This document shows positions 24,861-54,424 of a stretch of 56,859 nt of DNA, in pieces; position 1 is the first letter of the stretch; the number at the start of each line of letters is the position of its first letter. The position numbers were made by a program, and so were the translations under genes. The notes under the pieces were generated by a model. It was not told where the DNA came from. It saw only the letters and a list, made by a program, of their open reading frames with translations, and ran no database searches. The DNA lies in the IMG/VR virus record IMGVR_UViG_3300010371_000042, positions 1 to 56,859 of that record. The stretch is one strand, 5' to 3'. The stretch comes from a virus. Its lineage: Duplodnaviria > Caudoviricetes.

Positions 24861-25273
24861 CGTCCTCGGTCTCCGAGTCGCTCACCCAGCGTCCGGCGCC
24901 GAAGCCGCTGCAGCCCGGGCGCCGGCTTAAGCCCCTGCACGACCGCGTGCTCGTCAAGCGGCCCCCGAATGCGCGCCAGGTCGGCACGATCGTGCTCGTC
25001 GGCGGCAAGCGCGAGGACGTCGTGATCTCCGAAGTCGTCTCGATCGGCACTCGCTGCTCGCTGCGACCCTGGGAGCTCGCCGTCGGCGACTTCGTGATGC
25101 ACCCGCGCGTGTGCGGCGCGAAGTACGACAACACGTTCGGTCGTCTCGACGATGACGGCGACCTCGTGTTCCTGCACGAGCAGGAGCTCATGGCCGTCGT
25201 GGACCCGGGGCTCGTCGTGACGGGACACGCCGTCTACGACGCGAACGGCGTCTGCGACTTCGCGCAGAAGTAG
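24857..25273 (+). CDS. groES: GroES-like co-chaperonin
   Basis: LKPLHDRVLVKR, VVSIG, VGDFV, E.ELMAVV Cpn10 pattern. Confidence 0.8.
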   Translation: MTSSVSESLTQRPAPKPLQPGRRLKPLHDRVLVKRPPNARQVGTIVLVGGKREDVVISEVVSIGTRCSLRPWELAVGDFVMHPRVCGAKYDNTFGRLDDDGDLVFLHEQELMAVVDPGLVVTGHAVYDANGVCDFAQK

Positions 25274-27718: not shown

Positions 27719-28080
27719 AGCGCACTTCGAAGAGCGCGCCCGGGCGCATGAGCGCCGACGACGTGCTCCGGCTCATGGCCGGCATGCGTCAGCACGGCGT
27801 CGCATGCGTCGAGTTCGAGGGCTGCAAGCTCGCGCTCGTGCCGGACCGCGCCGTCGGAGGCCAGCAGACGCCCGCGCCGCGACCGACGGCCGCGCTGGCG
27901 ACGGCCGGGATCGCGCAGGCCAAGGCGACGCTCGAGCAGCAGCGGATCGCGCGCGCCTCGCGCCGCGCCGGCGCCGACCTCGGCGCGCAGACCGGCAAGT
28001 CGCTCACGAAGCTCGTGGAAGACGTCGTCGACGAAGCCAGCAAGCCCGAGACGGAGACGCCCATCGCCCGCTCCCCGTGA
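27715..28080 (+). CDS. Hypothetical protein between TerL and portal
   Basis: ATGA/GTGA coupling. Confidence 0.7.
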   Translation: MKRTSKSAPGRMSADDVLRLMAGMRQHGVACVEFEGCKLALVPDRAVGGQQTPAPRPTAALATAGIAQAKATLEQQRIARASRRAGADLGAQTGKSLTKLVEDVVDEASKPETETPIARSP

Positions 28081-30059: not shown

Positions 30060-30069
30060 AGGATCCGAC

Positions 30070-31173
30070 ATGTCCACGCCCGCCGACAAGCACAGCGCCG
30101 CGAAGGAGTCCCTGCTCGCGCGCCTGGAAGGAAAGACCGTTGTCATCCCCGGCGTCACGGGGCCGGCGCCGCAGCCGCGCGCCGAAGCGCTGTCGCCGCC
30201 GGAGGCGACCGCGCCCGCGGAGGCCGATGCCGAAGCCGGATCGGGAGATGGCGGCGAGGCGCCCGACGCAGCGTCATCCCCGCCCGCGTCCGATGGGGCC
30301 CGCGCCGAGCGACCCGCGAGCCGCCTGCAGCGCGCCGTGGAGCTCCAGCGTCGCGCGGATGAAGCGCGCACGCGCAGCCGACGGGAGGCCCAGAAGATCC
30401 GCGAGCGCGATCAGGCCTCGGAGGACCGTGCGCGCGAGGCGGAGAGTCGCGCGAAGCGCGCGGCGAACCTCGAGCGAGGCGTGCGCGAGCGCGAGGGCGC
30501 TCTTCAGCGCGAGATCGATCTGATCAGGACGAACCCGATCGAGTTCGCGCGTCGGCATGGCCTGACGCAGGCAGATCTCGTCGCGTTCGGGCGCGGCGAG
30601 CGTTCGCCCGCGGAAGCTCGCGTGGAGCTCGCGCTCGAGCGGTTCCGGAAGGAGAACGACCGCCAGCTCTCGGAGATCCGCGACGCGCAGAAGAGGCTCG
30701 AGTCGGCGCGCGAGGAGGAGAGCCTCTCGGCCGCTCGCTCCGCGTTCCTCGCGCACGTGACCGGCGACGAGAAGCGCTTCGAGGCGCTCAACACCATCTA
30801 CAGCCCCGAGGAGCTCGTCGCGAAGGCGGACGCCCTCGCCGAGAAGAACGAGAAGTTGCGGTGGGGCTGGGACGGTGACAGGCTCTGCGAAGAGCTCGAA
30901 GCACGGGCCCGCAAGGACCCGCGCTGGACGCGGATCCAGTCCCGCTTCGAGCCGCGACGCGCCGCGACCGGTCAGCCGAACGCCCCCGCTGCCAAGACAC
31001 CGAACGCACCCCGATCTGGCCGCGAAGCAGCGCCCTCCGAGGAAGTCGAGGAGGACGAGCCCGTCGCGCCGCCGCCCAGGCCTCGTGCCCCCGCACGGCC
31101 GTCGATGACTCCGCAGGAGAGGCATCGCCGGCACGTCGACCGCCTTGCCGGTCGTGTCGGGCGCATCGGCTGA
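30070..31173 (+). CDS. Capsid scaffolding protein
   Basis: Highly charged coiled coil between portal and capsid. Confidence 0.75.
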   Translation: MSTPADKHSAAKESLLARLEGKTVVIPGVTGPAPQPRAEALSPPEATAPAEADAEAGSGDGGEAPDAASSPPASDGARAERPASRLQRAVELQRRADEARTRSRREAQKIRERDQASEDRAREAESRAKRAANLERGVREREGALQREIDLIRTNPIEFARRHGLTQADLVAFGRGERSPAEARVELALERFRKENDRQLSEIRDAQKRLESAREEESLSAARSAFLAHVTGDEKRFEALNTIYSPEELVAKADALAEKNEKLRWGWDGDRLCEELEARARKDPRWTRIQSRFEPRRAATGQPNAPAAKTPNAPRSGREAAPSEEVEEDEPVAPPPRPRAPARPSMTPQERHRRHVDRLAGRVGRIG

Positions 31174-31253: not shown

Positions 31254-32525
31254 ATGGGATCGGGAGCGGAAACCACAACCAGTCTGAGTGCCCTCCTCAA
31301 GGAGGTGTGGCCTCAGGATCAGATTTACGACGAGCTGTGCTTTGGCATGGCGGGCTACGCCCTCATGCGCAAGGAGTTCGACCTGGCCAACGTCGTCCAC
31401 ACGGCGGTCGGCTACGGACCTTCGCAGGGCGTCAGCAACGATTTCTCGACGGCGAAGCGCAACAAGCAGCCGTCGAGCCTCGCGGGCTTCAAGATCACGC
31501 CCGGCGTCATCTACTCGCTCGAGTCGATCGACCGCCAGGCCATCGCGCTGTCTCGCGGGAACGTGCGCGCGATCATCGGGGCGCTCGACCGCGCCGCGCA
31601 GCAGGCCATCCTCGGCTGGAAGTTCTCGGCGAGCGAGCAGCTCTGGGGCAACGGCGGCGGATCGCTGGGCGTGGTCGCCAGCATCAACGGCAACCAGCTC
31701 ACGCTCACGAACGTCGACGATACGGTCAAGTTCGACATGAACATGACCGTCGACGCGGCGCCCGACGACGGGACTCCGGCGACGAACGGACCCACCGCGA
31801 CGCGAGGCGGGAGCGCCCGGATCGGAGCCGTCAACCGCGGCCTCTCGGCGACCTGGCACCTGCAGACCGCGAGCGGCAACTGGATGGATCAGTCGAACAT
31901 CCCCGGCCTGCAGGTCGGCGACTACCTCATGCGGGACGGCAACTACGGCAACGTCCTGCAGGGCATTGGCGCGTGGGTCCCCTTCGCCGACCCGGGGTCG
32001 ACCGACTCGTTCTTCTCGTGCAACCGCTCGAGCGATCCGCTCCGCCTCGCGGGCATCCGCATCGACGGGACGCGACTCACGCCGAAGCAGGCGTGCATGC
32101 GCCTCGTTCGAGAGGCCGTGCGGCATTCGGGCAACCCGACGCACGCCTTCTACAACCCGACGAACCTGGAGTCGCTCATGTTCGAGCTCCAGGCGGCCGG
32201 GAACATCCAGACCGTCAAGCAGGCGCCCGCGAGCATCGGGAGCCACGTCTTCGGCGAGCCCATCGACGGGATCCAGTTCCAGGGGACCGCGGGGCAGGTG
32301 AAGATCTTCGGCGACCCGCGCGTGCCGACGGGCAAGGTGTACGGCCTGGAGCTCGACTCCTGGTACATCTCGAGCACCGGCGATTTCCCGGTGATGGAAG
32401 CTGGCTCCGGCCTCGCGCTCTACCGCGAGGAGTGGGCGGACGGCTTCGAACTGCGAGTGCTCGCGGACCTGCAGGTCATCTGCCTGGCTCCGGGGCGCAA
32501 CGCCGTCATCAGCGTGAGCTCGTAA
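31254..32525 (+). CDS. Major capsid protein
   Basis: 423 aa after scaffold; LWGNGGGSLG, GIGAWVP...FF..NRS.DP.RLAG, C.APG.N terminal motif. Confidence 0.88.
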   Translation: MGSGAETTTSLSALLKEVWPQDQIYDELCFGMAGYALMRKEFDLANVVHTAVGYGPSQGVSNDFSTAKRNKQPSSLAGFKITPGVIYSLESIDRQAIALSRGNVRAIIGALDRAAQQAILGWKFSASEQLWGNGGGSLGVVASINGNQLTLTNVDDTVKFDMNMTVDAAPDDGTPATNGPTATRGGSARIGAVNRGLSATWHLQTASGNWMDQSNIPGLQVGDYLMRDGNYGNVLQGIGAWVPFADPGSTDSFFSCNRSSDPLRLAGIRIDGTRLTPKQACMRLVREAVRHSGNPTHAFYNPTNLESLMFELQAAGNIQTVKQAPASIGSHVFGEPIDGIQFQGTAGQVKIFGDPRVPTGKVYGLELDSWYISSTGDFPVMEAGSGLALYREEWADGFELRVLADLQVICLAPGRNAVISVSS

Positions 32526-35806: not shown

Positions 35807-38800
35807 ATGACCCTCAAGAAGCAGCCGCTCGAGGTCCCGATCCTGGGCGGTCTCGCTCAGAAGTTCGCGCCGCAGCGCATCCCGCGCGGCAAGGCCGCGA
35901 AGGCGCTGAACCTCGTCGCGAACAAGGCCGGTCGGCTCGAGAAGCGCCTGGGCTACTTCCCCCTCACGAAGACGGACCCCCTCGGCTCCGGCTTCACGCT
36001 GAGCGCCGGCCTCGCGCTCGGGCAGTGGAATGACGGCGCAGCGCCGGGCGACACGCTTCTCGTCCTTGGGCGCGGCACGGTGCCCTCGAGTGGGCAGGCG
36101 GCGACGGCGCTGCAGGCGTACTCCGACGACCTCGGAGGCCCGGTGCTGCGCGGCCCAGCGCCGGAGCTCTCGATCACGGGCGACAACGTCGCTGGCGCGT
36201 CCCTGGGGTCCACGTTCTCGCCGCAGTCGTCGCAGTACAACGACGTCCTCGTCACCGTCTGGATCGACCCGTCGACTGAGCCGCAGAAGGGCCTGCAGGC
36301 CGCCACGCGCATCATCGCGCAGCAGCCGGTATCCCAGGTCGGGACGCTCATGTGGTCGGCGCTCGAGGTGTCGACGGGCCGCCAGCTCGTGGGCCCCTCG
36401 GTCGTCGACTCGGCCGGCGGCATCAACACGCAGTTTGTGCGGCTCGCCAACGTCGGCGGGACATGGATCATCTGCTACTCGGTCACCGGCCCGCAGTCGT
36501 CGACGCCCGCGACCTACAACGGTCAGATACTCTTCAAGACGATGAGCTACGCCGCGCTGACGAGCGGCGCGGGTTGGGGCGGGACGGGCGCTGGGACGAA
36601 CATTCTGGCCGCCGGTGGGACCAGCAACGCCGCGTCTCCGCGGCCGTACGTGATGTCCAGCCTGCCCGTGCCGACGACGGGCAATGGCGGCTGGGTGCTC
36701 TGGGGCAACGCCTTCGACATGAAGGCGGTGCTCGGAGACCCAACGTCGTTCGTACTCGCGTACGAGACGGGGACATACACGCCCAATGGAGAGTTTCCGG
36801 GTACGTGGACCGGCACGGACATCGTCGTCGAGCGGCGCCCCATCTCGAATCCGACGACGACAACGGCTCAGTGGGTGGTCGCCGCCGCACCGGGCGGGAC
36901 GAACATCGTCTGCGGCTTCGGCGTGCGCGCCGACAACAACTTGGGGCTCGTCGCCGTCGCATGGTCGCAGGGGGCGGATCCAGGAACATCGACGCCGTAC
37001 ACGATCCAGGCATCCGCGGGCGGGTACCCGTCGATGACCGGGATCTCTACGGCGACGACCGTCTACACCGGGACCGACGCTTTCGAGACGGCGCCCTACT
37101 GGCTTGACGTTTCATATCAAGACAACGGCTTCGTGGTGAGTCACTCCCCTATGGGGTCGTGCTGGAACGCCGGATTCACTTCGGCGCAGTCCGCGGGCGC
37201 CGCCGGCTCCGGCGCGACGGCGCTCGCCGTCCCCGCGTACAAGGTCGAAGAGGTCCTCGTCACCACGATGTGGACATTCGTCGGCACCACGACGACGACC
37301 GCATCGCTCCCCAGCGGAGGGCCGTCGCTCACCACTGTGATGGACGGATCCAACGAGGCTCTCGTGAGCATCACCCTCGGGTCCGGCGCCACGTACTCGT
37401 ACAGTTCCGTCCCCAGCGTCTCCGTCCGGGCAAGCAGTACGCCCTTCACGACCGGTTCGGCCGAGGCGATCTGCCTCTGCAACGTCGGCTCGATCAACGT
37501 GACCGAAGGCGGCATGAACTACAGCGGCTCGGCGGAGCCGACCATCGTCTTCGACCGAGGAGGCAACCCGGGAACGCCGGCGTCGATCACCGTCACGCCG
37601 ACTGCCAGCGCCCTCACCGCGTCGATGTTCACGATCGGCACCGCCGGCGCCGGGTACACGTCGACGCCAGACGTCACAGTCGTGGACTCCGCGGGGCTCG
37701 CGTCGGGCGCCGTCGTCGAGGCAGTCATGGCATCCGACGGGGCGGGGAAGCTCAAGATCCAGTCGCTCAACGTGATCAACGGGGGCCAAAACTGGAATGC
37801 GAGCGGCGTCTCGGTCTCCGTGCTCGTCTCCGGCGGCGCGGCCGCGGGCGCGATCACGATCGACAGCAACGGCACGATCACGAATATCGCGGTCTCTAGC
37901 CCCGGCGCGAACTACCAGAAGCCGCCGAGCATCACATTCGTGCAGCCAGCGAACTTCGTAGGCCTCCAGCAAGGCGAAAAGAACCGCCTCAGTCTGCCCT
38001 CCTTCGGAGGCGTCTCGTCGGCCGAGACGGCCTCCTGGTTTCCCGCGAACAACGCCCGCATCATCCAAAACCAGTTCAGTGTCGGCGCATCGGGCAATCC
38101 CCTCACGCTTTATCCGAACGCCAGCGGGACGAACGCGATCATCACGCGCGGGGTGACGCTCGCCTCGTGTGGGCTCGAGGCGAACGGCATCGTCTACTAC
38201 TTCGGGTGGATCCCGAGCCTCACGCAGGGCGGCTTCCTTGTCCTCGCGCTCGATCTCGCCGCGAACCCTAACTCGACGATCACGGGCGCCTACTTCCCCA
38301 TGCGCCCAGTGGGCAACCTGCAGACGCGCACGGCGCTCGCGGACCCGGGATGGGGCTTCCAGCCGGCCGACGTCATCACGTTTCCTTCGTCCTATGCGTA
38401 CGTGTACCAAACGCCCGTGGCGCCGAATTGCTGGACCGGGGGCTCGTCATGGACGCTCGGCACCGATGCGTATGGGACGGCGACCGTCGGCTATGTGAGC
38501 TCGGGCCAGAACGGCCGCCTCTCGCCCGCATATGGCGTGATCCAGACGCAGCCCCGGCGCGGCTTCCCGATGGCGAAGTGGGGCGAGCTCACCGCGGTCG
38601 GCGGCGCTCTCCCCTCGGTCTACGACGGCCAGAACGTGCTCGAGATGGGCTTCCTCTGGACGATCGAGAGCGTGCTGGCGCAGCCCATCACGGGCAACCT
38701 GACATGGTCGGAGCTCGACGACTCCTACTCGTGGATCTTCACGTGGGAGCACTTCGACGCGCAGGGCAACTTCCACATCAGCGCGCGCTCCACGCCGGTC

Positions 38801-40483
38801 GCGGTGACGGGGCAGGACATCGTCGACCTCCTCGGCGTCGGCTCGATGGGGCAGTCGGCATCGGGGCTGCCGTCCGGCCTCCAAGTGCCGGCGCAGATCG
38901 GGGGCGGCAACACGTGGACGGGCGGCGTGCAGTTCACCATCCCGCCGCTGGGCGTGACGAACCGCCAGTGGCCCGGAAACGGCCCGCAGCCGCCGAGCGC
39001 CTTCGGGCACGACCTGCGCGCCTTCTGCGCGGGACCGACGGCGCCGGTGACGCTCGGCGTGTACCGCACGGAGAAGAACGGCTCCGTCTACTATCGAATT
39101 TACGATCGCCAGTTCAACGGCGACGATATCGGCGACAGCGGCTTCACACTCGCTCCGCCCGTATACAACGGCTTCGGTGGATCCAGCATTGTCGTGACTG
39201 ACGGCCTCGCCGACGACATCCTCAACGGGACGAACGCGGCGTCGCCCTTCCCGCGGCTCTACGGCGACGGCACGAACGGACTTCCGGGGAGCGCCGACAA
39301 CTTCTGTCCCCCGGCCAGCCTCGTGATGGTGAATCACAAGGACCGGCTCTGGATGGCGCGCGGCAACGAGCTTCTCTTCACGAAGGTGCGAGCCGCCGGC
39401 GAGGGTCCAGGCGTCAACGAGGAGCTCCAGGCCGTCGTCGCCGGCGCCGACGATCCGATCGTCAACGTCGCCTCGATGGACGACCGACTCGTCATTCTCA
39501 AGTCGGCGGGGAACTACTGCGTCTCCGGAGACGGCCCCGCCGACGACGGCTCGGGTCAGACCTTCGGCGCTCCGGACCCGATCCCCACGGACCTCGGCGT
39601 CGTCTCGGCGCAGTCGGTCATTTCGACGCCGGAGGGCGTCTACTACCAGTCCGCAATCGGGATGCGCCTGCTCGACCGTGGGCTGCAGGTCCGGTACGTG
39701 GGCGGACCGATCGAAGACGAGCTCGCGACCTACCCCACGGTCCTCGGCGCCGCGCTCTATCCGCAGAACAACCGGATGCTGCTGCTGGCTGCGGCGGCCG
39801 ACACTCCGAGCGTGACGACGCACGAACTGGTCGGAGAGATCGCACAGCGAGACTACGCGCTCGACGTGTGGACGACCGCGGTCGTCGAGAATGGCTCCGC
39901 GCAGACGGGCTTTTGCTCGGCGGCGGTGGCATATGGCAAAGGCGCAGGAGGGGGATCGCCTTCGGTCAACGTGTACCGCACGACGATGAACCTCCTCGCC
40001 GCAGACGGCACCGTGTGGCGCGAGCACGCTCCAAACGACTCGGGTCCGTATTACGACAACGACACCTATGTCTCGTGGACATGGCTCTCGCCCGTCATCC
40101 GCGTGCCGTCGAGCAGCGACGCGGAGGAGAGCCTCCAGGGCCGCTTCCGGACCTACGACATCCTCGCGATCCTCGATTCAATGGATCCGCACGGGCTCCA
40201 GATCTCCGTCGGCATCGACTATGGCTCGCTCGCGTCGAACCGGTCGTGGGTCTGGAACAACGGCACGTCGCAGGGCTCGATCGCGCCCGGGGGCGTCGTG
40301 CCGACCCCTCTGACGCAACTCCGCACCTACGATGGTAGAATGGCGGAGGCGTTCCAGTTCCAGCTCCAGGACGTCAGCGACCCCGCTTCGGTCTCCGGGC
40401 AGGGCAGTCAACTCCTCGGCCTCACGCTCTCCATCGGCGTCATGCCGGGCCCGTACAAGCTCCCCGCGTCGGCGACGCAGTGA
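35807..40483 (+). CDS. Tail nozzle / tubular protein B-like, with inserted repeat domain
   Basis: 1558 aa; GRLEKRLGY N-terminal motif, beta-propeller-like C-terminal half (HKDRLW, DLGVVS..SV..TPEGVYY); position after adaptor. Confidence 0.75.
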   Translation: MTLKKQPLEVPILGGLAQKFAPQRIPRGKAAKALNLVANKAGRLEKRLGYFPLTKTDPLGSGFTLSAGLALGQWNDGAAPGDTLLVLGRGTVPSSGQAATALQAYSDDLGGPVLRGPAPELSITGDNVAGASLGSTFSPQSSQYNDVLVTVWIDPSTEPQKGLQAATRIIAQQPVSQVGTLMWSALEVSTGRQLVGPSVVDSAGGINTQFVRLANVGGTWIICYSVTGPQSSTPATYNGQILFKTMSYAALTSGAGWGGTGAGTNILAAGGTSNAASPRPYVMSSLPVPTTGNGGWVLWGNAFDMKAVLGDPTSFVLAYETGTYTPNGEFPGTWTGTDIVVERRPISNPTTTTAQWVVAAAPGGTNIVCGFGVRADNNLGLVAVAWSQGADPGTSTPYTIQASAGGYPSMTGISTATTVYTGTDAFETAPYWLDVSYQDNGFVVSHSPMGSCWNAGFTSAQSAGAAGSGATALAVPAYKVEEVLVTTMWTFVGTTTTTASLPSGGPSLTTVMDGSNEALVSITLGSGATYSYSSVPSVSVRASSTPFTTGSAEAICLCNVGSINVTEGGMNYSGSAEPTIVFDRGGNPGTPASITVTPTASALTASMFTIGTAGAGYTSTPDVTVVDSAGLASGAVVEAVMASDGAGKLKIQSLNVINGGQNWNASGVSVSVLVSGGAAAGAITIDSNGTITNIAVSSPGANYQKPPSITFVQPANFVGLQQGEKNRLSLPSFGGVSSAETASWFPANNARIIQNQFSVGASGNPLTLYPNASGTNAIITRGVTLASCGLEANGIVYYFGWIPSLTQGGFLVLALDLAANPNSTITGAYFPMRPVGNLQTRTALADPGWGFQPADVITFPSSYAYVYQTPVAPNCWTGGSSWTLGTDAYGTATVGYVSSGQNGRLSPAYGVIQTQPRRGFPMAKWGELTAVGGALPSVYDGQNVLEMGFLWTIESVLAQPITGNLTWSELDDSYSWIFTWEHFDAQGNFHISARSTPVAVTGQDIVDLLGVGSMGQSASGLPSGLQVPAQIGGGNTWTGGVQFTIPPLGVTNRQWPGNGPQPPSAFGHDLRAFCAGPTAPVTLGVYRTEKNGSVYYRIYDRQFNGDDIGDSGFTLAPPVYNGFGGSSIVVTDGLADDILNGTNAASPFPRLYGDGTNGLPGSADNFCPPASLVMVNHKDRLWMARGNELLFTKVRAAGEGPGVNEELQAVVAGADDPIVNVASMDDRLVILKSAGNYCVSGDGPADDGSGQTFGAPDPIPTDLGVVSAQSVISTPEGVYYQSAIGMRLLDRGLQVRYVGGPIEDELATYPTVLGAALYPQNNRMLLLAAAADTPSVTTHELVGEIAQRDYALDVWTTAVVENGSAQTGFCSAAVAYGKGAGGGSPSVNVYRTTMNLLAADGTVWREHAPNDSGPYYDNDTYVSWTWLSPVIRVPSSSDAEESLQGRFRTYDILAILDSMDPHGLQISVGIDYGSLASNRSWVWNNGTSQGSIAPGGVVPTPLTQLRTYDGRMAEAFQFQLQDVSDPASVSGQGSQLLGLTLSIGVMPGPYKLPASATQ

Positions 40484-40493
40484 GAGGCGCACC

Positions 40494-43016
40494 ATGAGCA
40501 ATCCGGTCGGGGCACTCGGCAGCATCACGCAGGGCATCTTCGGAGGCCCGAACCAGAACCAGGCTGCGCCGACGATCGACACGTCGGGCACCAATGCGTG
40601 GCAGGGCAACCCGGGCAACGTCGCCGGGAACGAGGCTGCGCAGCAGCAGGCCATCGCGATGGCGCAGCGCACGGCGGCCGGTCAGGGGCCTTCGGCCGCG
40701 ACCTCGCTCCTCAACGAGCAGACGAAGCAGGCGCAGGCGCAGGCCGGCGCGATGGCGGCGTCCGGCCAGGGCTCCACGGGTCAGGCGCTCGCGCGGCGTG
40801 ATGCGATGATGGCTGGCGCGAACGCGACGCAGGAGCTCGGAGGCCAGGCGGCGACGGCGCGCGCGCAGGAGCAACTCGGAGGCGAGCAGCTCGCCGGGAG
40901 CCTCGCAAGCGGCGCCCGGGGCCAAGACCTCACGGCCGCGGGGCAGCAGGCGGGGCTCGCGCAGTCGCAGGGCCAACTCCAGGAACAGCAGAACCAGACG
41001 AACGCGCAGTCCGCGACGTCGAACGCGACCTCTGCGGGCAACACGCTCACCTCCATGGCGGGGATGGCTGCGGGCGCCCTCATGTTCGCGGACGGGGATG
41101 CGCGTGGCACGCCTCCGGGCGGCGCGCGCGTGGGCACGAGCAACTTCAAGGAGCCCGGCGGCGCAGCCGAGTGGACGCTCCGCGAGGAGGACAACTTCCT
41201 GCTCGCCGTGAACCGGCGCACCGGGCAGCGCTTCAAGGTCGCGATGCAGCACCTCACTCCGGCGGAAGAGCGGGAGGCGCAGGCACCGCACGGCGCCGGT
41301 CCCATCGACGCTCCGCCCGGGCAGCGCGCCGCGAAGCAGATGGCCGACGGGGACCTCGGGAGCGATCCGCGCTTCGCGCAGCTCGTGCGCGCGGCGCACC
41401 CGGGCCTCTACCGAGCCGCGTCCGCGGGCGGCTCGTACGCCGACGGCGACATGGGGACCGAGGGAGAGTGGGCCCGGGCCACGGAGCTCGCGACGAATGC
41501 CGCCGGCATGGGCAAGGGCGACGAGGGCGAGTACGGCAAGGGCTGGGATGACGTGATCCACGCGCGCGGCGGGAGCGCGCCGGGCGATCCGGACGCGCCG
41601 TCGCCCGCGCAGAGCGGCAAGGGCGGCGCGCTGGCGGGGGCACTCCTCGGCTGGTCGAACCCGGGCGCGCTCGGCAAGATCGCTGCGGCGCGCGCGTCGT
41701 CCGCGGGGAAGGGCTATCAGCGGTCCGGGCCGACAACGACGGACGCTCCTCCCCCCGAGGCGCCCCCGTCGACGTACACCGACGCGCTGGGCAACACGGC
41801 GCACTACGGCGACGCGGACCTCTCGGAGCCCGTGATGGCGGGCTTCCGGAAGATCGAGGGCGCGCGCGCCGCATATCAGGCGCCGGCGGCGATGGATGCC
41901 GTTGCGCGGATGCGCCGCGAGGCCCTCTCCGACATCGAGGCGGGCCCGAACCTCGCGCGGTCCGGCGGGGGCGACGACACGACGCGGCTCTTGAAGGACC
42001 GGGCCCCGCGGGCGCGCGTGGTGCTCGACTCGGAGCGGAACGGCCGGGAGCTCGAGGGGCTCGGCCTGGGATCGGGCCGCGTGCCGACGGAGAGCGGCGG
42101 TTACGCGCCCTCGCTCGTACGCGGCAGCCGAGGCTACGTCGACGTGTCGCGCGGGGGACAGCACGCGTCGATGCCGATGGCGGACATCCCGTCCTCGGCC
42201 GAGGCGGCGGTAAACCGGCGCGCGTTCGCGCCCGCGGCGCACGAGTACCAGGACGCCGATCTCGGTTCGCGCGACAACCCCGTCGACCTCGACGATCCCG
42301 TCGCCGTCCAGAAGGCCTCCGAGCAGCTCGCAGATCGCGCGCGTCCGGGATCCAGCGCGAACCCGGTCGATATCGACGCGTGGAAGCCGGACATCGATAT
42401 CGGCGACCGTGGCTTCGGTGGTCGCGACGCTCCGGTGGACCTCGACGATCCGATGGCCGTCTGGGACGCCGAGATGCGGCTCAGCGAGCCGGCGCGACGC
42501 CGGTACGAGGCCGCCGAGATCGCGGCGATGAACCCGTACGAGACCAAGCCGACACCTGCCCGTGCGCCGGCCCTGGCGACGCTCTTCTCGGTGCCGAAGT
42601 CGAAGCCGAACGCGGGACCGACAGACTTCCTGAGCGTGATGCGCGCGCGCGGGCGCGCGTTCGATCGCGCGGGCGGCCTGCGCTCGGCGGCGCAGGATTG
42701 GGAGCGCGACCAGGCCGCGGAAGCCGAGGCGGAGAACACGCTGAACCGGCGCGGATTCGACCTGGTGCCCGGCGAGGCCGAAGGCATCAACCTGAAGGAG
42801 GCGCGACGCCGCACGAAGTCGCGCAACGACGTCCGCGCGCTGATGCGCATGTGGGCCGACGAAGCGCGCGGACGCCCGCGCGGTCCCGAGAACGACGAGC
42901 GCGAGATGGTCGCGAGCTACCCGGACGCGGACCTCTCGCCGAAGCGCCAGAAGGCGTCGGCGCTGGGGCGCACAATGGCGCGCAAGGGCAAGAAGGGGCG
43001 GAGGGCCGCGGCGTGA
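40494..43016 (+). CDS. Putative DNA ejection (pilot) protein with repeated xDGD/DADL motifs
   Basis: Q/A/G-rich N-terminus ending in GMAAGALM; position after nozzle. Confidence 0.7.
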   Translation: MSNPVGALGSITQGIFGGPNQNQAAPTIDTSGTNAWQGNPGNVAGNEAAQQQAIAMAQRTAAGQGPSAATSLLNEQTKQAQAQAGAMAASGQGSTGQALARRDAMMAGANATQELGGQAATARAQEQLGGEQLAGSLASGARGQDLTAAGQQAGLAQSQGQLQEQQNQTNAQSATSNATSAGNTLTSMAGMAAGALMFADGDARGTPPGGARVGTSNFKEPGGAAEWTLREEDNFLLAVNRRTGQRFKVAMQHLTPAEEREAQAPHGAGPIDAPPGQRAAKQMADGDLGSDPRFAQLVRAAHPGLYRAASAGGSYADGDMGTEGEWARATELATNAAGMGKGDEGEYGKGWDDVIHARGGSAPGDPDAPSPAQSGKGGALAGALLGWSNPGALGKIAAARASSAGKGYQRSGPTTTDAPPPEAPPSTYTDALGNTAHYGDADLSEPVMAGFRKIEGARAAYQAPAAMDAVARMRREALSDIEAGPNLARSGGGDDTTRLLKDRAPRARVVLDSERNGRELEGLGLGSGRVPTESGGYAPSLVRGSRGYVDVSRGGQHASMPMADIPSSAEAAVNRRAFAPAAHEYQDADLGSRDNPVDLDDPVAVQKASEQLADRARPGSSANPVDIDAWKPDIDIGDRGFGGRDAPVDLDDPMAVWDAEMRLSEPARRRYEAAEIAAMNPYETKPTPARAPALATLFSVPKSKPNAGPTDFLSVMRARGRAFDRAGGLRSAAQDWERDQAAEAEAENTLNRRGFDLVPGEAEGINLKEARRRTKSRNDVRALMRMWADEARGRPRGPENDEREMVASYPDADLSPKRQKASALGRTMARKGKKGRRAAA

Positions 43017-44752
43017 GCACGTCGTACGATCCGCTGGCGGGCAAGCTCCTGCCGATGGAGAGCCCGGCGCCGGGGTCGTCGCCGGCGCTCGCGGTTGACG
43101 CGGACTCGCCGGCGCCGGCGCGCCCCGCGCCGTCCCCATTCGTCCCGCCGCCGATGCCCGATCCGGTGCTGGCCGATCTCGCAACCGTGTCCGACGCGGA
43201 CCGCGATCGGATCGCCGCGAACCACGACGCCGACGTGGCGCAGAAGTGGGCGGAGTACCAGGGGCGCGTGCTCGGCCTCGGCCCCGAGGACCGCACGGCG
43301 CTCCCGCCGGACTACATCACCGCGCGCCAGGTCGTGGCCGATTCGCGCAAGCACCACGGGCTCTTCCCGGAGGAGCTGCAGCCCGACAACCCGCCGGCGG
43401 ACCCGCGCGACGATTTCCGCGAGCCGACGCAGTTCACCTTCGGCCGGGCAGCGAACCAGGCGCTCGACGCGCCGGCGCCGCCCGACCGCGCGCAGCCCGT
43501 CGCTCCTGCGCCGCGCCCGAGCGGTGGCGGCGTCGGTCCGCCCGCGCACGACTACGGCGCGGATTGGTCGAACGCCTTCGACGACCGGATCCGCGCGATG
43601 GAGGACGAATCGCGAGCTCGCGTCGCTGGCGCCTCGGATGTCGCTGGCGCCTTCGAGAACGCCGCGGAGGAGCAGCGCGGCGAAGGCCTTGCGTCGATGG
43701 CGCAGGCGAAGGCCAACGCCGACGCACAGCGCGCGCGCATCGCGGAGGTCGACCAGCTCAATCGTGACTACGCCGCGGGGCAGATCGATCCGAACCGGTG
43801 GTGGTCGGAGCGCAACGTCCCGCAGAAGATCGCGGCGGTGCTCGGCGGGATGCTCGCGGGCATCGGCGGGGGCGTGCGCGGCGCCGTCGACTTCCACAAC
43901 CAGCTCGTCGACCGCGACATTGCACTCCAGCGGGACGATCTCGAGCGCAAGTACAAGGCGGGGATGCAGGCGGACAACCTGCTCGCGTCCTTCATGCGCA
44001 CGAGCGACTCCGAGCAGGAGGCGATGGACAAGGCGCGCGCGGCGCTCATCGGGTCGTCGATCACGGAGGTCGAGCATGCGCAGGCCGCGGCGAAGGGACC
44101 CGTCGAGAAGGCCCAGATCGACCAGCTCATCGCCGACATGCGGGCGACGCGCGCGCAGACGCTCGCGAAGATCCAGGCGCAGCGCCAGGCCGGCGCAGCG
44201 GCGTCGCAGGTGCGCGGCCTCGAGATCGACCCCAACATGCTCGTTACGAGCCGCGGGGAGCAGTTCCTCGTGCCGCACGGCGACGCGGAGGCCGTGCGGC
44301 AGAACCTCGACGCGTACGACCGGCTCGAGGACAACCTGCGCGAGGGTCTCGACCTCCTCAACCGACGCGGCGCGCTCGACTACCTGCCCACGAGTGCGAA
44401 CATGCGCGAGGCGAGCAGCGTCGACGCGAGCGTGGCGCAGAACCTCGCGCGACTCGCGAATGCCCGCGGCATCCCCCCGAGCATCGCGCAGCTCGCGAAG
44501 GAGGAGGCGCCGAGCTTCGGCTCGACGTTCGCGAAGCTCGACGTGCCGAAGGCGCAGCGCATGCTCCGGATGCTGAAGCAGTACCGGGGTGACATGCTGC
44601 AGGGGTCCGTCCCGGTCGACGTGCAGACGGGACCGGGGGTCGGCAAGGAGGCGAACAAGCTGACGTACTGGGCGACCCCGCGCGCGCTGCGCCCCGCAGC
44701 CGAGCCGGAAGATGCGCTCGACCGTCCCTCGCCTGGTGCAGTCCCTAGGTGA
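43013..44752 (+). CDS. Putative ejection protein 2
   Basis: IDPNRWW, hydrophobic glycine-rich segment, coiled coil. Confidence 0.7.
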   Translation: MSTSYDPLAGKLLPMESPAPGSSPALAVDADSPAPARPAPSPFVPPPMPDPVLADLATVSDADRDRIAANHDADVAQKWAEYQGRVLGLGPEDRTALPPDYITARQVVADSRKHHGLFPEELQPDNPPADPRDDFREPTQFTFGRAANQALDAPAPPDRAQPVAPAPRPSGGGVGPPAHDYGADWSNAFDDRIRAMEDESRARVAGASDVAGAFENAAEEQRGEGLASMAQAKANADAQRARIAEVDQLNRDYAAGQIDPNRWWSERNVPQKIAAVLGGMLAGIGGGVRGAVDFHNQLVDRDIALQRDDLERKYKAGMQADNLLASFMRTSDSEQEAMDKARAALIGSSITEVEHAQAAAKGPVEKAQIDQLIADMRATRAQTLAKIQAQRQAGAAASQVRGLEIDPNMLVTSRGEQFLVPHGDAEAVRQNLDAYDRLEDNLREGLDLLNRRGALDYLPTSANMREASSVDASVAQNLARLANARGIPPSIAQLAKEEAPSFGSTFAKLDVPKAQRMLRMLKQYRGDMLQGSVPVDVQTGPGVGKEANKLTYWATPRALRPAAEPEDALDRPSPGAVPR

Positions 44753-44755: not shown

Positions 44756-47700
44756 ATGGCTGACATCCCGGCCATCGACGTCGCGAGCGGTCAGCCGACG
44801 CAGGTCCCGCAGGAGGCGGCGGCCGCGGCATACCGCTCAGGAAAGATCCGCTTCGCGCCTGGAACCAGCGTTCCGATCACATGGCAGGGCCAGTCGTGGT
44901 CGGTGCCCGGAGAGCAGGTCGATACGGCGTTGCAGAACGGTGCGGAGCTGGACGTCGATCCGACGGGCGCCGTCAAGGCGGCGGCGGCCGGCGCAGCCCG
45001 GGGCGTTTCGCTCGGAGCGTCCGACTGGCTGGCGATCGAGGGCACCCGGCTGCTCCACGGCGACGACGCGGCGGAGCGCACGCGCCAGCAGCTCCAGGGG
45101 CTGCGCGAGGAGCACCCCGCCGCGAGCATGGGGGCCGAGGCGGCCGGCGCCATCGCGCCAATGCTCGTCCCGGGCGCCCAGGAAGCGGAGGGCGCGGAGC
45201 TGCTTGCCGGAGCGGGCGAAGGGGCGTCTGGCGCGGAGGGCGCGCTCGCCGCGCGCGACGCCGCCGAGACCGGAGAGGCCGCGCAGGCCGCAGCGCAGAT
45301 CCGCGCCGCCGCCGACCAAGCGACCGCGGTCGCGCGCGCGGACGAGGCGTCGGGCCGCACCGTCGGGAGCGCGCTCGGCTCGCTCTTCCGCCACGCGAAC
45401 CCCAACGAGATCGTCGGCCGGATCGGCGAGGGCGCCGAGGACTACATCGGTCGTCTCTTCGGAGAGAGCGGCCTCGCGGGGCCCGCGGGCACGCTCGGTC
45501 GGTGGACGGCCGAGGGCGCGATCGTAGGAGCCGCGAACGCCGCGGACGAGTCGGAGCTGGGCGACACGGACCTCACGGGAGAGTCGCTCTTTGCCAGCAT
45601 GGAGCACGGCGCGCTCTGGGGCTCGGCGCTGGGGCTCGTCGGCGCGGGGGTCGAGCGCGGGATCTCCGCCGCGGGGAGCCTCGCCGCGCGCGTCGCGGAG
45701 GGTCGGCTCGGCGCGAGCGCGGGGCAGTACCGGAGCTTCCTCGCACGCCATGGCCCCGGCACGCTCGGTATGCGCTCGCTCGAGGAGGGCATCGAGCGTC
45801 CGTTTGCGACCGGCGCCCAGAAGTACGAGCGCGCGCAGGAGGTCGTGGAGCGCGACGGGCGCATGCTCGACGGGATCGTGCGCGAGGCCGATCCGGACTT
45901 CAATGGCGCGAGCGCGCCCGAGGTCGTGCAGCACTTCGACCAGGCCGTCGACGAAGCGGTCGAGAAGGGCCGCATCTACGGCGCGAACCTGGACGCCGCG
46001 GGCGCGCAGCTCAAGTCGGAGATCCGCAAGGGCGTCGGCTGGCGCGACGATCCGGCACCCCCCGAGCCGCTCCCGGACGGCGCCGCGGAACGGCTGTACC
46101 AGGACGCGTGGCAGCGCGAGGGGCTCATCGATCCATCGAGCCCCGCGCCGCCCCCGGTGACCGGCGCGCGGGTGCGTGCGCGCTGGCGCGATCTCGCGGA
46201 CGAAGCGGGCCTCGGCACGAAGCTCGAGCGCCCGGCGAAGCGCCTGCGACCGGCGGATCTCGAGGCCTACCGCCAGAAGCTCGTGGCGCAGTTCCAGGCG
46301 ACGCGCGATGTCGCGGAGAAGCAGCGCCTCGGCGTCGTCCTCGGCACGCCCACGGCGCTCGAGGAGGGCGCGCTTCAGGACGTGAACGCGGCGGTGGCAG
46401 CGCGGAACTCGCAGCGGTCCACCCTGCGCGACCAGGCCGCGCGCGAGCTCGACGCGGTCTACCAGGAGCAGCGAGGGGCCTTCGAACAGCAGATGCAGCG
46501 CCACGAGGAGCTTCGCGCCGCCGCGGGCGATCGCGTCTCGCAGATCCACGCGGAGCGCGATCGGACGTACGCGCACATGGTGTCGGCGGTGCGCCGGTCG
46601 AACCAGGAGCTGCGCGTCCCGATCGCAGCCGTGCGCGGGGTGCGGTCGAAGATCGACGAGGTGATCCCGTACAACCGCGCGAGCGACGCGCTCACGAACG
46701 CCGCGGTGGAGCTCAAGAAGGCGGCCCGTCGGTCGCTCGAGTCGCGCGTCGAAGCTTCGATGGATCGCGCCGCGCGCGACGCCGGGAAGCCGGAGCTCTT
46801 CGCCCGGTACGTCCACGCGAAGGCGCGCTACGGGCAAGCGAAAGACATCGAGGCCGCGCTCGAGCGACAGCGTGCGCGCGAGGTGTCGCGCTTCGGGCGC
46901 GAGGTCTTCGGGCACTCGGGAGGCATCGTCGGCCACGCGATCACGGGCCTCGTGTTCGGGCATCCCCTCGGCGGCGCCGCGGCGGGGGTCGCGCGCCAGT
47001 ACGCTCCGACGCTGGCGGCGTTCCTCGCCCACAAGGTGGCGCGGTTCGCGGAGATGCGCGCGCTGCGCACCGAGATCCAGATCGCGATGCGCCGTAGCGC
47101 GCGCGCGGCCGTCACCGGCGACGCGGTCCCGCGGTTCGCCTCGATCGAGGTGCCCGACCTGCCCCCGCACGCCGCCCGGGCGACGGCCGCTGCTGCGATG
47201 AACGACGTCCTCCGGTCGGCCAAGGGTACCGACCTCGGAGAGCGGCTGGCGGCCCTCGACCCGGGCCTGTCCCTCTTCGCCCCCCGCTCCGCCGCGGCGC
47301 AGGAGGGCGTCGCGCGGCGCGCGCTCGCGTGGATCCTGACGAACATCCCCGCGCGCCTGCAGCAGCTCGTGGGAACGGGGCAGGACATCGAGAGCAGCGA
47401 CATGTCCGACACCGAGGCGCGGTCCTTCCTCGAAGCGTCCGCGGTGGCGCACGATCCGCGCGTGGCGACCGACGCCATGGCCCGCGGGGAGCTGACGCCC
47501 ACGCTCGCAAGGGGCTTCGTGGTGGTGGCGCCGAAGCTCGCGGAGCAGACCAAGCTCACTACGCAGCGGCTGCTGGCGACTGACCGCGGGGCGCGCCTGA
47601 CGGCGGGTCGCCGCGCGCAGCTCGGCCTCCTCGGCATCGAGCCGATGCCGGTGCCCATGGGCATGACCGCCGCGCTGCAGGCTTCGGCTTCGAGCGCCGC

Positions 47701-47863
47701 CTCCGGGGGCGCCGCGATGGCGCAGCCATCCGGGCAGGTGCACGCGGCGAGCGGACTGAGTAAGCTCAACGTCGCATCGATGCTTCAGACCGAGACTCAG
47801 GCGGCCGAGAACACCTCGCCGGGCCGACGCGGACGACGCGGCGCCCCGGTGGGCGGCCCCTGA
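44756..47863 (+). CDS. Putative large ejection protein 3
   Basis: 1035 aa A/G-rich helical; GAARGVSLGASD motif and glycine-zipper segments. Confidence 0.72.
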   Translation: MADIPAIDVASGQPTQVPQEAAAAAYRSGKIRFAPGTSVPITWQGQSWSVPGEQVDTALQNGAELDVDPTGAVKAAAAGAARGVSLGASDWLAIEGTRLLHGDDAAERTRQQLQGLREEHPAASMGAEAAGAIAPMLVPGAQEAEGAELLAGAGEGASGAEGALAARDAAETGEAAQAAAQIRAAADQATAVARADEASGRTVGSALGSLFRHANPNEIVGRIGEGAEDYIGRLFGESGLAGPAGTLGRWTAEGAIVGAANAADESELGDTDLTGESLFASMEHGALWGSALGLVGAGVERGISAAGSLAARVAEGRLGASAGQYRSFLARHGPGTLGMRSLEEGIERPFATGAQKYERAQEVVERDGRMLDGIVREADPDFNGASAPEVVQHFDQAVDEAVEKGRIYGANLDAAGAQLKSEIRKGVGWRDDPAPPEPLPDGAAERLYQDAWQREGLIDPSSPAPPPVTGARVRARWRDLADEAGLGTKLERPAKRLRPADLEAYRQKLVAQFQATRDVAEKQRLGVVLGTPTALEEGALQDVNAAVAARNSQRSTLRDQAARELDAVYQEQRGAFEQQMQRHEELRAAAGDRVSQIHAERDRTYAHMVSAVRRSNQELRVPIAAVRGVRSKIDEVIPYNRASDALTNAAVELKKAARRSLESRVEASMDRAARDAGKPELFARYVHAKARYGQAKDIEAALERQRAREVSRFGREVFGHSGGIVGHAITGLVFGHPLGGAAAGVARQYAPTLAAFLAHKVARFAEMRALRTEIQIAMRRSARAAVTGDAVPRFASIEVPDLPPHAARATAAAAMNDVLRSAKGTDLGERLAALDPGLSLFAPRSAAAQEGVARRALAWILTNIPARLQQLVGTGQDIESSDMSDTEARSFLEASAVAHDPRVATDAMARGELTPTLARGFVVVAPKLAEQTKLTTQRLLATDRGARLTAGRRAQLGLLGIEPMPVPMGMTAALQASASSAASGGAAMAQPSGQVHAASGLSKLNVASMLQTETQAAENTSPGRRGRRGAPVGGP

Positions 47864-52858: not shown

Positions 52859-53601
52859 GCACCTGCTGCGTCATCATCATCGAGGCGACGACGTCGCCGC
52901 TCATTCCCCAGGTCACGGCGGCATGGCTCGCGCGGTGTGCGCAGGCGTGCGCCACGCAACTCAATCGCGACGTGGCCCCGATCTGGGGCGGCGGCTCCTG
53001 GGGCGTGCGCGTCGGCTCTGGGCCCACGGACGTGCACCCAGGCGAGATGGTGTTCTCGATCGTCGACCAGCTCCCGGACGCGCCGGGCGCGGTCGCGTAC
53101 CACGACGTCGCCGGCGCTGCGGTGCCGGTGGCGTTTCTCGCGCTCGCGACCTGCCAGACGCTCGACGACGTCTCGACGGCGATCTCGCACGAGCTCTGCG
53201 AGACGGCCGGCGACGAGGCGTGCAACCTGTGGGCGGACGACGGCGCGGGCCACGAGTGGGCTCGCGAGCTCTGCGATGCGGTCGAGAGCGGCTGGTACAA
53301 CGTGGACCTCGGCGAAGGACAGTCGCCGATCAAGGTCTCTGACTTCCTGCTCCCCGCGTTCTTCGCGCCGGGCGCCACCGGCCCACTCTCGTTCGTCGCG
53401 TCGACAAGCCCCGCGAGCGCCAGCTTTCCTTCGGCCCCCTTCGCGACGGCCGCCGGCGGCTACCAGCTCCAGCGCTCGAGCGGCGCGGGGGAGACGCAAG
53501 TCACCGCGGACAGCGCGAGCCGACGCGGGGCGCTCGCGCGCGCGCGGAAGCACCACTGGAGCTCGCGTCCCGCGCGGCGCGGTCTGCGGCCGTCGCCGTG
53601 A
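52855..53601 (+). CDS. Zincin-like metalloprotein
   Basis: GAVAYH, SHELCE...D, ELCDAVE, VSDFLLPAFF. Confidence 0.7.
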   Translation: MSTCCVIIIEATTSPLIPQVTAAWLARCAQACATQLNRDVAPIWGGGSWGVRVGSGPTDVHPGEMVFSIVDQLPDAPGAVAYHDVAGAAVPVAFLALATCQTLDDVSTAISHELCETAGDEACNLWADDGAGHEWARELCDAVESGWYNVDLGEGQSPIKVSDFLLPAFFAPGATGPLSFVASTSPASASFPSAPFATAAGGYQLQRSSGAGETQVTADSASRRGALARARKHHWSSRPARRGLRPSP

Positions 53602-53915
53602 AGCTCCACGTCCTCGCGTTCCTGCCGCTCCTGCTGATGCCCTGGGTGGCGCTCGGCATCCTCGGGGCGGCGGGTCTCATCGCGGGCGGCTGCGCGTCGT
53701 CGCCCGATCTGCCGCCGCCTGCGCCGGCGCCGGTGCTCGTGCAGGACGATCCGCACTGGCGCGAGCACCCGGACTGCCTGTGGTGTCGGGAGCAGTGCTG
53801 GCTGGACATCGAGTATCGGTGCGTGGGCTACGCCCAGACCGCCGACGATATCACCCGATGCCAGGCTTGGGACGGCAGCGCACCGGCGCCGGTCGATGCG
53901 GGGTGTGCGTGGTGA
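53598..53915 (+). CDS. Cys-rich membrane protein or lipoprotein
   Basis: Long hydrophobic N-terminus ending AGG-C; multiple Cys. Confidence 0.6.
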   Translation: MKLHVLAFLPLLLMPWVALGILGAAGLIAGGCASSPDLPPPAPAPVLVQDDPHWREHPDCLWCREQCWLDIEYRCVGYAQTADDITRCQAWDGSAPAPVDAGCAW

Positions 53916-54424
53916 CCCGCGGTCTCGTGGCCATCATCGCAGTGGCATGGACGCTCGCCGGCTGCGCGACCACGACGACCACGCACGGCGTCCCGAACCT
54001 GCACCAGGTCGAGGGGACCGTGTGGCGCTCCGGTCAGCCATCGACGCCGGAGGCGTGGCGCTACCTGCGCTCCCTCGGCATCACCACGGTCGTGAAGCTC
54101 AATCGCGAGTCGGAGGGCAGCGACGCTGGCGCCGTCGCCGCGGGGATGACTGTCATCGCGATCCCCATGCCGCCGTCGGACATCTGGGAGACGCTCACGC
54201 AGCCTGCGCAATCGGACATCCGGCGCGCCGTCGCCGCGATGCGCGAGGGCCATGCGCTCGTGCATTGCACCCACGGCGAAGACCGCACGGGGCTCGCCGT
54301 CGGCGCGTATCGCGTGTGGGTCGACGGGTGGCCAAAGCGCGCCGCGCGCCGCGAGATGGACGCCGACGGGTTCCACCAGGAGCTCGTGGGGCTCGACGAG
54401 GCGTGGGAGGCGCTGGCGCCGTGA
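53912..54424 (+). CDS. Dual-specificity/tyrosine phosphatase family lipoprotein
   Basis: Lipobox LAG-C; WRSGQP, LGITTVVKLN, HCTHGEDRTG (CX5R). Confidence 0.88.
   Translation: MTRGLVAIIAVAWTLAGCATTTTTHGVPNLHQVEGTVWRSGQPSTPEAWRYLRSLGITTVVKLNRESEGSDAGAVAAGMTVIAIPMPPSDIWETLTQPAQSDIRRAVAAMREGHALVHCTHGEDRTGLAVGAYRVWVDGWPKRAARREMDADGFHQELVGLDEAWEALAP

Follow-up and report, generated by a model that had tools for sequence, protein, structure and literature searches.

A repeated acidic six-residue motif and a small beta-meander module in P0001, a putative ejection protein of an uncultured temperate phage

P0001 is a protein of 840 amino acids (aa) encoded by an open reading frame in the IMG/VR virus record IMGVR_UViG_3300010371_000042. 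The complete record, a linear sequence of 56,859 bp with ~70% G+C, is the window analyzed here; it represents an uncultured, temperate, podovirus-like phage, probably of Polyangiaceae-type myxobacteria. P0001 displays six copies of a short acidic sequence, [YFM]-x-D-[GA]-[DE]-[LMVA], which is a genuine short linear motif. The prototypes of the motif are the two peptide stretches that flank a small domain, termed here the WTLREE module, in every relative, and one of these stretches is the edge strand of the module's beta-sheet. The position of the gene suggests that P0001 is an ejection or needle-type virion protein. The motif copies may be docking or assembly peptides derived from the strands flanking the module, a reading to which we assign a probability of roughly 0.4.

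Results

The repeated motif

The original prediction, made from the nucleotide (nt) sequence, described six spaced motifs separated by unrelated low-complexity segments. All six are present, and they begin exactly at the positions listed in Table 1. A scan with the regular expression [FYWM].D[GA][DE][LMIVA] finds six matches in P0001 where 0.04 are expected, and none of 2000 composition-preserving shuffles reaches six. When the shuffle test is applied to seven proteins (P0001 and six homologs), the observed count is reached by 0/2000 shuffles in any of them. Chance and composition are thus excluded as the source of the copies. A six-frame scan of the whole record yields eight matches, six in the P0001 gene and two outside plausible coding frames. 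At a related prophage locus (L003, from a Polyangiaceae genome), all eight six-frame matches are within the orthologous gene.

The six homologs were found with a word-indexed search; they display 35%–53% identity in the alignment and have 3–8 motif copies each. Five of the six motif sites of P0001 are positionally conserved in this alignment, while the identity of the surrounding 20-residue windows drops to 7%–30%. The motif is therefore kept where the spacers vary, in line with the original prediction. The description of the spacers as low-complexity sequence holds in part: they are poorly conserved overall, but there are conserved islands and predicted helices within them. The remaining site, at residue 585, is a lineage-specific gain. 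An ancestral site ~35 residues upstream has decayed in P0001 to YVDVSR, and at this position P0002 has FHDADL, P0003 has FNDADL and P0004 has YPDGEL. Extra motif copies are found in P0004 and P0006.

Every defined position of the motif is constrained. Leave-one-out scans of 12 close relatives gave 61/67 for D, 61/62 for G/A, 61/64 for D/E, 61/72 for Y/F/M and 61/69 for L/M/V/I. The 71 instances in these 12 relatives give the logo [K/A/S][Q/T/S]-[Y41 F13 M11]-[A26 S11]-D-[G50 A21]-[D55 E16]-[L33 M17 V13]-[G33]-[G21]. The motif has the properties of a short linear motif: it is short, is conserved above its flanks, lies in predicted disorder, and shows gain and loss in evolution. Within the literature covered, neither the motif strings nor the combination of Peptidase_S74 with ejection, needle or internal virion proteins led to anything relevant.

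An exhaustive profile search of 1.84 billion representatives shows the family to comprise 1700 proteins at E ≤ 0.001, with 251 at ≤ 1e-10 and 55 at ≤ 1e-30. The best 150 of the 1700 were examined (151 proteins counting P0001), and at least three motif copies are present in 13 of the 151. One homolog, P0005 (521 aa, on a 280-kb contig), ends 16 residues past the fourth motif site, and could be a natural gene split at a motif.

The WTLREE module

The segment WTLREEDNFLLAVNRRTGQRFKV (residues 227–249 of P0001, nt positions 41172–41240) is part of a small domain that was suspected in the original prediction and is real and widely conserved. A profile of P0001 residues 190–312, searched against the 151 family proteins, confirms the module in 91 of them. 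The consensus of 92 instances is aDADL[KQ]EPGG-AHWTLREE-dFiLAkNqRTGe..K..T.PL...E..QA.APHGAGP, and ~20 residues past PHGAGP there is a second motif-like stretch, xD(M/L)x(L/M)G. The R-E-E and PHGAG residues are invariant. Strand 1 reads ADADLKEP in most relatives and TSNFKEP in P0001, and the His that precedes WTLREE is not kept in P0001.

An AlphaFold2 (AF2) model of residues 188–326, built from 50 sequences, gives the module core a predicted local distance difference test (pLDDT) score of 92–94 (86–95 in the full-length model). It is predicted to be a beta-meander of ~50 residues with antiparallel strands at 215–219, 226–231, 236–240 and 246–249 and a helix at 256–263, followed by helices at 292–310. 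The strand equivalent to ADADLKEP is the first of the four-stranded sheet and forms its edge. This places one of the two motif prototypes within the fold itself.

Pfam, PHROGs and NCBIfam have no match to the module, and a Foldseek search for a structural match in the PDB gave none at E ≤ 1e-3. The best hits of an exhaustive VIA wide search (Z 3.6) are generic four-stranded meanders such as propeller blades; the T7 fibre tip (T7 gp17) has Z 3.1 and a root-mean-square deviation of 7.4 over 47 residues. With no Foldseek match at this threshold and no VIA score above 3.6, the models do not support a specific tail-fibre-chaperone fold, and a known fold cannot be assigned. Searches with tblastn using P0001, P0016 and P0094 found no match in 50,697 GenBank phage records.

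The models do point to self-association. A three-copy model of residues 1–326, run with a custom alignment, gave scores of 0.45, 0.47 and 0.44 against 0.00 for the best control, and passed a mark that 20 of 30 solved pairs and 1 of 23 single chains attained in a calibration with two copies and the tool's own alignments. At least 40% of the contacts agree between runs, and the confident interface is confined to residues 225–284, which cover the module with its PHGAGP loop and extend two residues into motif copy 2. This supports a predicted role of the module as a self-association element. The trimer modelling called for by the original prediction thus supports binding but does not show it. The likening of the module to a fibre chaperone stands in one respect, as the confident three-copy interface fits a trimer-nucleating role, but no sequence or fold link to known C-terminal or chaperone modules of tail fibres was found.

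Relationship to Peptidase_S74

The N-terminal ~200 residues of P0001 (the N-domain) recur in many proteins of ~250–400 aa, among them proteins of ~300 aa with Peptidase_S74 at their C-terminal end, and some relatives match PHROGs annotated as tail fibre or virion structural protein. The autocleaving chaperone domain Peptidase_S74 (Pfam PF13884) is found in 29 of the 150 relatives (5/70 and 24/80), and the sole other Pfam family among them is a glycine zipper in one protein. P0001 itself has no match to S74 or to any other Pfam family at E ≤ 0.1, and none in PHROGs and NCBIfam.

Five related loci (L002, L004, L007, L008 and L009) display a common order: N-domain, S74, a motif-like strand (YADADLSEP, YGDAKLREP etc.), module, PHGAGP, and then a second stretch such as YGDMFLG, HGDFDIG or FGDGMLG. 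The S74 match of L002 gene 1 has an E-value of 1.4e-7. The original prediction had named an association of related pilot proteins with S74, and this is correct since the IMG/VR relatives show S74 between the N-domain and the module; motif copy 1 of P0001 is exactly at the S74 junction. Several relatives have S74 and the module in tandem; thus the module is not simply an S74 replacement. Of the 84 module instances that lack S74, 47 have a DxD-type strand 1, compared with 1 of the 7 accompanied by S74, a weak difference in which relatedness is ignored.

The junction follows the G/A-rich hydrophobic end of the N-domain. At this point 23 S74-bearing relatives have SD.R.K (F/SDERVK type, the stroke marking the junction), while eight of the nine members shown of the P0001 clade have ADGD[AVLM] or ADAD, and P0015 has GDADI. 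Judging from this alignment, motif copy 1 is the old S74 autocleavage junction. Autocleavage by Peptidase_S74 requires a Ser-Lys dyad, with the Lys five residues past the nucleophile Ser. The P0001 junction reads F/ADGDAR, and on sequence grounds S74 chemistry is excluded at copy 1 because the nucleophile Ser is replaced by Ala and the Lys is lost.

Three further relatives, P0011, P0024 and P0025, have an S74 start signature (SDERVK/SDENLK) ~20 residues before the module strand (…LSLARDADLKEPGG…), yet give no Pfam S74 match; from their sequences, these may represent stages on the way to S74 loss. In P0011 the module is present twice, and there are additional SD.R.K signatures.

Architecture of P0001

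The P0001 gene has a GAGAGG sequence resembling a ribosome-binding site 8 nt before its ATG start codon. Its TGA stop codon, at 43014–43016, and the GTG start codon of the next gene overlap in the sequence GTGA. P0001 has a mosaic structure, made up of a Q/A-rich helical N-domain, the WTLREE module and a 520-aa extension specific to its clade. A full-length AF2 model from 52 sequences has a mean pLDDT of 60, with helices in the N-domain at 40–61, 68–89 and 97–180 and further helices at 292–310, 324–336, 445–482 and 653–678. Of the 840 residues, 356 have a pLDDT below 50. All six motif copies are in segments of this kind, between confidently predicted elements, and three of these segments (282–290, 311–321 and 805–815) barely exceed the motif in length. 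The motif thus appears to mark the hinges of the protein.

Comparison of the whole protein with known structures yielded no relationship. A sequence search of the PDB with the family profile and three neighboring proteins gave no match, and neither did a feature search of the ESM Atlas. A structure search of the same atlas gave only entries with a template modelling (TM) score ≤ 0.37, the query model having a pLDDT of 0.44, and a Foldseek search of BFVD with whole P0001 gave only entries of TM < 0.1 with a query model that is largely disordered.

The 520-aa extension is mostly disordered. Besides the acidic motif it has [NA]PVD[LI]D, with three copies where shuffles give 0.001 expected, and [RA]MNPY, which occurs once. 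Each of these is shared by 7 of 11 close relatives; all 11 have the NPY core, which is also in the repeats of L002 gene 2. The extension is therefore a string of several classes of short motif, and it looks like a multi-epitope hub. It also has a glycine-rich hydrophobic island, GGALAGALLGWSNPGALGKIAAAR, which is possibly a membrane-active segment.

Among the loci with a related gene block, the extension is found only in L003 besides P0001. Of 401 searched genomes from the host class, two have a member of the family, one of these being a weak N-domain match, and a metagenome scan gave two contigs only, both of L002 type.

In L002, a relative of lower G+C, the gene after the module gene (1984–4560) encodes a disordered N-terminal extension of 350 aa with four tandem AMDRTNPYDTSGNVDPNI repeats (AMDRTNPY repeats). 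The same extension has GDIGGD repeats, ADLDLY-type stretches and one RRRYADADL. Since it is at the N-terminus of the next gene's product, the motif-bearing extension sits across the gene boundary in L002. It is found on either of two adjacent proteins, and would therefore work whichever of the two it is attached to.

Gene block, probable host and other features of the record

Genes were called by third-position G+C (GC3), and the gene products were scanned against PHROGs and Pfam. Table 1 lists the structural genes and the features of P0001. The structural block is on the + strand, in the order large terminase, portal, scaffold-like gene, capsid-like gene and small genes, and ends in four large genes encoding 1558, 840 (P0001), 579 and 1035 aa. 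The location of P0001, in a run of large genes after a tail-hub-like gene, is that of podovirus ejection proteins.

Table 1. Positions of structural genes in the window and of features within the P0001 gene.
Feature	Nucleotide positions	Strand	Remarks
Large terminase	25973–27718	+	
Portal	27678–30059	+	
Charged helical scaffold-like protein	30061–31173	+	between portal and capsid genes
Capsid-sized gene	31254–32525	+	
1558-aa virion protein, conserved upstream neighbor	35807–40483	+	weak PHROG matches
P0001 gene, 840 aa	40494–43016	+	GC3 0.89
N-domain, residues 1–197	40494–41084	+	glycine-zipper-like N-terminus, Q/A-rich long helices, G/A-rich hydrophobic end
Motif copy 1 FADGDA, residue 198	41085–41102	+	at S74 autocleavage junction position
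WTLREE module, residues 213–270	41130–41303	+	four strands, helix 256–263, invariant PHGAGP loop
Motif copy 2 MADGDL, residue 283	41340–41357	+	counterpart of the second module-flanking motif (xDMxLG type) of all relatives
Conserved helix pair RFAxxVRRAHPGLY, residues 292–310	41367–41423	+	from alignment and models
Motif copy 3 YADGDM, residue 315	41436–41453	+	
Conserved glycine-rich hydrophobic island, residues 377–400	41622–41693	+	
Motif copy 4 YGDADL, residue 438	41805–41822	+	followed by SEP, as in strand 1 of relatives; immediately precedes helix 445–482
Decayed ancestral motif site YVDVSR, residue 548	42135–42152	+	intact motif in homologs (see text)
Motif copy 5 YQDADL, residue 585	42246–42263	+	lineage-specific gain
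Three copies of [NA]PVD[LI]D, residues 595, 623, 646	42276–42446	+	
MNPY motif	42528–42539	+	
C-terminal helical domain, residues 712–791	42627–42866	+	pLDDT 86–95
Motif copy 6 YPDADL, residue 809	42918–42935	+	
Basic C-terminal tail	42939–43013	+	10 K/R in 25 residues
579-aa protein, conserved downstream neighbor 1	43013–44752	+	glycine-rich hydrophobic segment
1035-aa protein, conserved downstream neighbor 2	44756–47863	+	

A block encoding ~1100–1560 aa, the module protein, ~530–600 aa, ~840–1070 aa and ~145 aa is conserved in eight loci with a G+C of 0.56–0.70 (the record, L002–L005 and L007–L009). Homology of the neighboring genes is backed by pairwise matches with E-values of 9e-11 and 3e-14. 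The 1558-aa protein has weak PHROG matches only, to Ig-like regions of head-closure/baseplate families and to phrog_511, an internal virion protein (E = 0.0015), and gave no match in a PDB sequence search; a hub, a nozzle and a fibre are candidates for its role. The 579-aa protein and its L002–L009 homologs share the core ...IDPNRWW...KIAAVLGGMLAGIGGG, and the glycine-rich hydrophobic segment is kept in 8/8 loci. The KIAAVLGGMLAGIGGG segment is likely to be a membrane-inserting element of the putative ejection set.

The gene set of the record is that of a temperate phage: two serine recombinases, a RecT-like protein, an exonuclease, a DnaC-like loader, Dam and DUF5131. A myxobacterial host is probable because the closest genomic relative sits in a Polyangiaceae metagenome-assembled genome.

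Several other genes were noted in the scan. The two serine recombinases (7616–9019 and 22757–23593, +) have resolvase domains with E-values of 9e-23 and 4e-31, and the second has no match to the Pfam Recombinase domain. The gene for a Cpn10 (GroES-like) co-chaperonin (24857–25273, +; Pfam E = 4.7e-9) is a short way upstream of those for packaging and structure. A 495-aa protein (52937–54424, +) has a C-terminal dual-specificity/tyrosine phosphatase domain (Y_phosphatase3, E = 1.9e-9), with a further match to Tc-R-P, a phosphatase family of polymorphic toxins (E = 1.3e-6). The gene at 21390–21761 (+) encodes a small RyR-domain protein (Pfam E = 2.9e-10).

Discussion

Proposed docking and assembly

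The reading proposed here is as follows. P0001 is the product of the second gene of a conserved block of four putative virion genes, and would descend from fibre-like proteins that have a helical N-domain and an autocleaving S74 chaperone. Two additions to this ancestor are envisaged: the small beta-meander module WTLREE...PHGAGP, which would tie copies of the chain together, and, in the P0001 clade only, the flexible extension of 520 residues. In this clade the motif would have been multiplied from the prototypes that flank the module into every flexible hinge. The copies would then add as strands onto the oligomeric module of neighboring chains; alternatively, they may bind partners encoded next door, or a host envelope protein. 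Docking of this kind would gather the floppy extension into a bundle for packaging and direct re-assembly following ejection.

Several points weigh against this proposal. The docking partners named are candidates, and the AF2 monomer docks no distal copy on the module: all copies have a pLDDT below 50, and no strand is assigned to any. The lack of docking in a monomer model is not evidence against binding. In the trimer model the fold confidence is low (pLDDT 44–52), and the partner fold is flagged as uncertain. Copy 1 is exactly at the position where relatives cleave themselves, the copies punctuate boundaries between structured pieces as polyprotein sites would, and a Gly follows the motif directly in 33 of 71 instances, as at many protease sites. 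No link to the T7 or P22 ejection proteins was found in PHROGs, Pfam, NCBIfam, PDB sequences or BFVD, and it is the gene order that suggests an ejection role.

Possible processing sites

The position of copy 1, the punctuation of boundaries and the following Gly belong to the main rival explanation, a doubtful one in our estimate, in which the motifs are processing sites. The cutting would be done by the oligomeric WTLREE module as a novel type of self-processing domain, by a protease of the host or by an unrecognized one of the phage. Processing would set the N-domain free, the task of S74 in relatives, and yield five to six further pieces. Copy 1 occupies the S74 junction after the same G/A-rich hydrophobic stretch, and the requirement for a free N-domain could therefore have been maintained in another way. 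It is also in keeping with processing that all copies are in exposed hinges, that a tight six-residue specificity is followed by a small residue, and that the extension is found in one or the other of two adjacent genes, a difference without consequence if it is removed by cutting in any case. The greater frequency of DxD-type strands in modules without S74 goes in the same direction, with the weakness stated above.

The search for a protease argues against processing. No protease family was found in P0001, its neighbors, 35 further proteins of the window or the 150 relatives, and the gene between portal and capsid is scaffold-like; the absence is unproven because the record is incomplete (CheckV completeness 68%). 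No protease-like fold matches the module, a beta-meander of 50 residues, and no catalytic architecture is recognizable in it despite its invariant R-E-E and PHGAG residues. The His before WTLREE is absent in P0001 itself, the S74 dyad is lost at copy 1, and the prototype copy is a structural strand of the module. Unlike head-maturation protease sites, the motif is present in no other virion protein of the phage; sites of that type were rejected as a candidate, the capsid, portal and scaffold frames being free of it.

The original prediction had proposed a module that processes the protein at the motif. Library scans and fold searches give nothing that points to a protease in the module or elsewhere in the phage, and as neither a protease nor a protease-like fold was found, the polyprotein reading is possible but unsupported. 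Its strongest form, in which the WTLREE...PHGAGP module is an unrecognized self-processing domain that cuts at the motif once oligomerized, is unlikely. In the Polyangiaceae phage clade, with the site copied into every hinge, one gene would then give rise to six or seven virion peptides, an ejection polyprotein whose products would include a membrane-active glycine-rich piece, helical pieces and the basic tail. In most relatives such a module would replace or supplement S74 in freeing an N-terminal fibre or needle domain.

Improbable readings: host-directed epitopes, metal binding and absence of function

The motifs could instead be directed at the host. The extension would then resemble the unstructured translocation domain of a colicin, with motifs that bind periplasmic or envelope proteins (Tol/Ton-type or others) and pull the protein across the envelope. 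A disordered extension with three classes of conserved short motif is compatible with this, as are the membrane-like glycine-rich segments of the neighboring proteins and the restriction to one host-associated clade (2/401 genomes of the class and, among the loci, only L003). We consider it improbable. The prototype motifs are found in relatives from contigs with a G+C of 0.56–0.66, and because these contigs differ widely in G+C the prototypes predate any one host. TonB and TolB boxes were considered as candidates and rejected, the motif having no evident likeness to their consensus sequences, with no search made.

It is quite improbable that the copies are metal nodes, in which the acidic pair on one face of a strand, contributed by three chains, would chelate Ca2+ or Mg2+ on the axis of the oligomer, pin the extension at intervals and let go of it upon a change of the ion conditions at ejection. 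A metal is held in this general manner in the tip of the T4 long tail fibre, where HxH motifs hold iron. Such a node would be served by the constrained acidic pair, a D at position 3 and a D/E at position 5 separated by a small residue; in addition, P0001 is predicted to self-associate, and its ancestors carry a trimer-specific chaperone. By inspection, however, the motif is unlike canonical DxDxDG Ca2+ loops, and this pattern was rejected as a candidate since it is missing from the motif. Long and variable spacers set P0001 apart from a regular fibre, none of the models brings distal copies together, and many relatives have K, H or Q in place of the second acidic residue of strand 1.

That the repeats have no function, being leftovers of internal duplication or a product of the A, G and D richness of P0001, is very improbable indeed, because the shuffles never reach the observed count in any of the seven proteins and the six positions are kept between unrelated flanks across homologs of 35%–53% identity.

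Comparison with known systems

Peptidase_S74 is a C-terminal autocleaving domain of endosialidases and tail fibres. It directly follows the same N-domain in relatives of P0001. The WTLREE module shares with S74 a C-terminal placement and a predicted role in keeping chains together. The module differs from S74 in being a beta-meander without detectable S74 similarity.

P0001 is like the ejection proteins of T7 (gp14/gp15/gp16) and P22 (gp7/gp20/gp16) in its location in a run of large genes after a tail-hub-like gene and in its helical, disordered and glycine-rich hydrophobic parts. In contrast, no sequence, profile or fold link between them was found. According to one review, podovirus ejection proteins display mosaic conservation and flexibility, and P22 gp20 may need cleavage by the host (PMC8954989). 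Neither an S74 ancestry nor a multi-copy acidic motif was found in the ejection-protein literature covered (PMC8954989, PMC9144972).

Two further systems are of interest for comparison with P0001. In giant phages of the phiKZ and SPN3US type, head and ejection proteins are cut multiply by the prohead protease at short motifs. As in P0001, a short motif recurs in internal virion proteins and marks the boundaries of pieces. The giant phages differ in having a gene for the protease and in using the motif across many head proteins, whereas in the record analyzed here a protease was not found and a single gene has the motif. Colicins have intrinsically unstructured translocation domains with several short binding epitopes. 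P0001 has a comparably long disordered region with different conserved short motifs, and a Gram-negative envelope to cross, but colicins are a different class of protein with no shared motifs.

Significance

As a virion protein that has S74 in its ancestry and motifs in a disordered region, P0001 is of a known kind. What is new is the small domain, which is outside the family libraries and solved structures, and an unusually clean multi-copy motif. The domain recurs in the family of 1700 metagenomic proteins defined by the profile search (E ≤ 0.001), and was found in none of the GenBank phage records searched and in no solved structure. In addition, an S74 autocleavage junction is documented here as converted (Ser to Ala) while the junction sequence stayed under selection.

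The storage of podovirus ejection proteins in the capsid, their unfolded passage through the tail and their re-assembly in the envelope are poorly understood. With its conserved and multiplied six-residue peptide and a small uncharacterized domain, P0001 offers a compact handle on these processes. If the peptide is a cleavage site, the module would be a new autoprocessing domain and P0001 the first polyprotein-style ejection protein in a small tailed phage. If the peptide docks on the module, the two would constitute a simple self-assembly code for proteins inside the virion.

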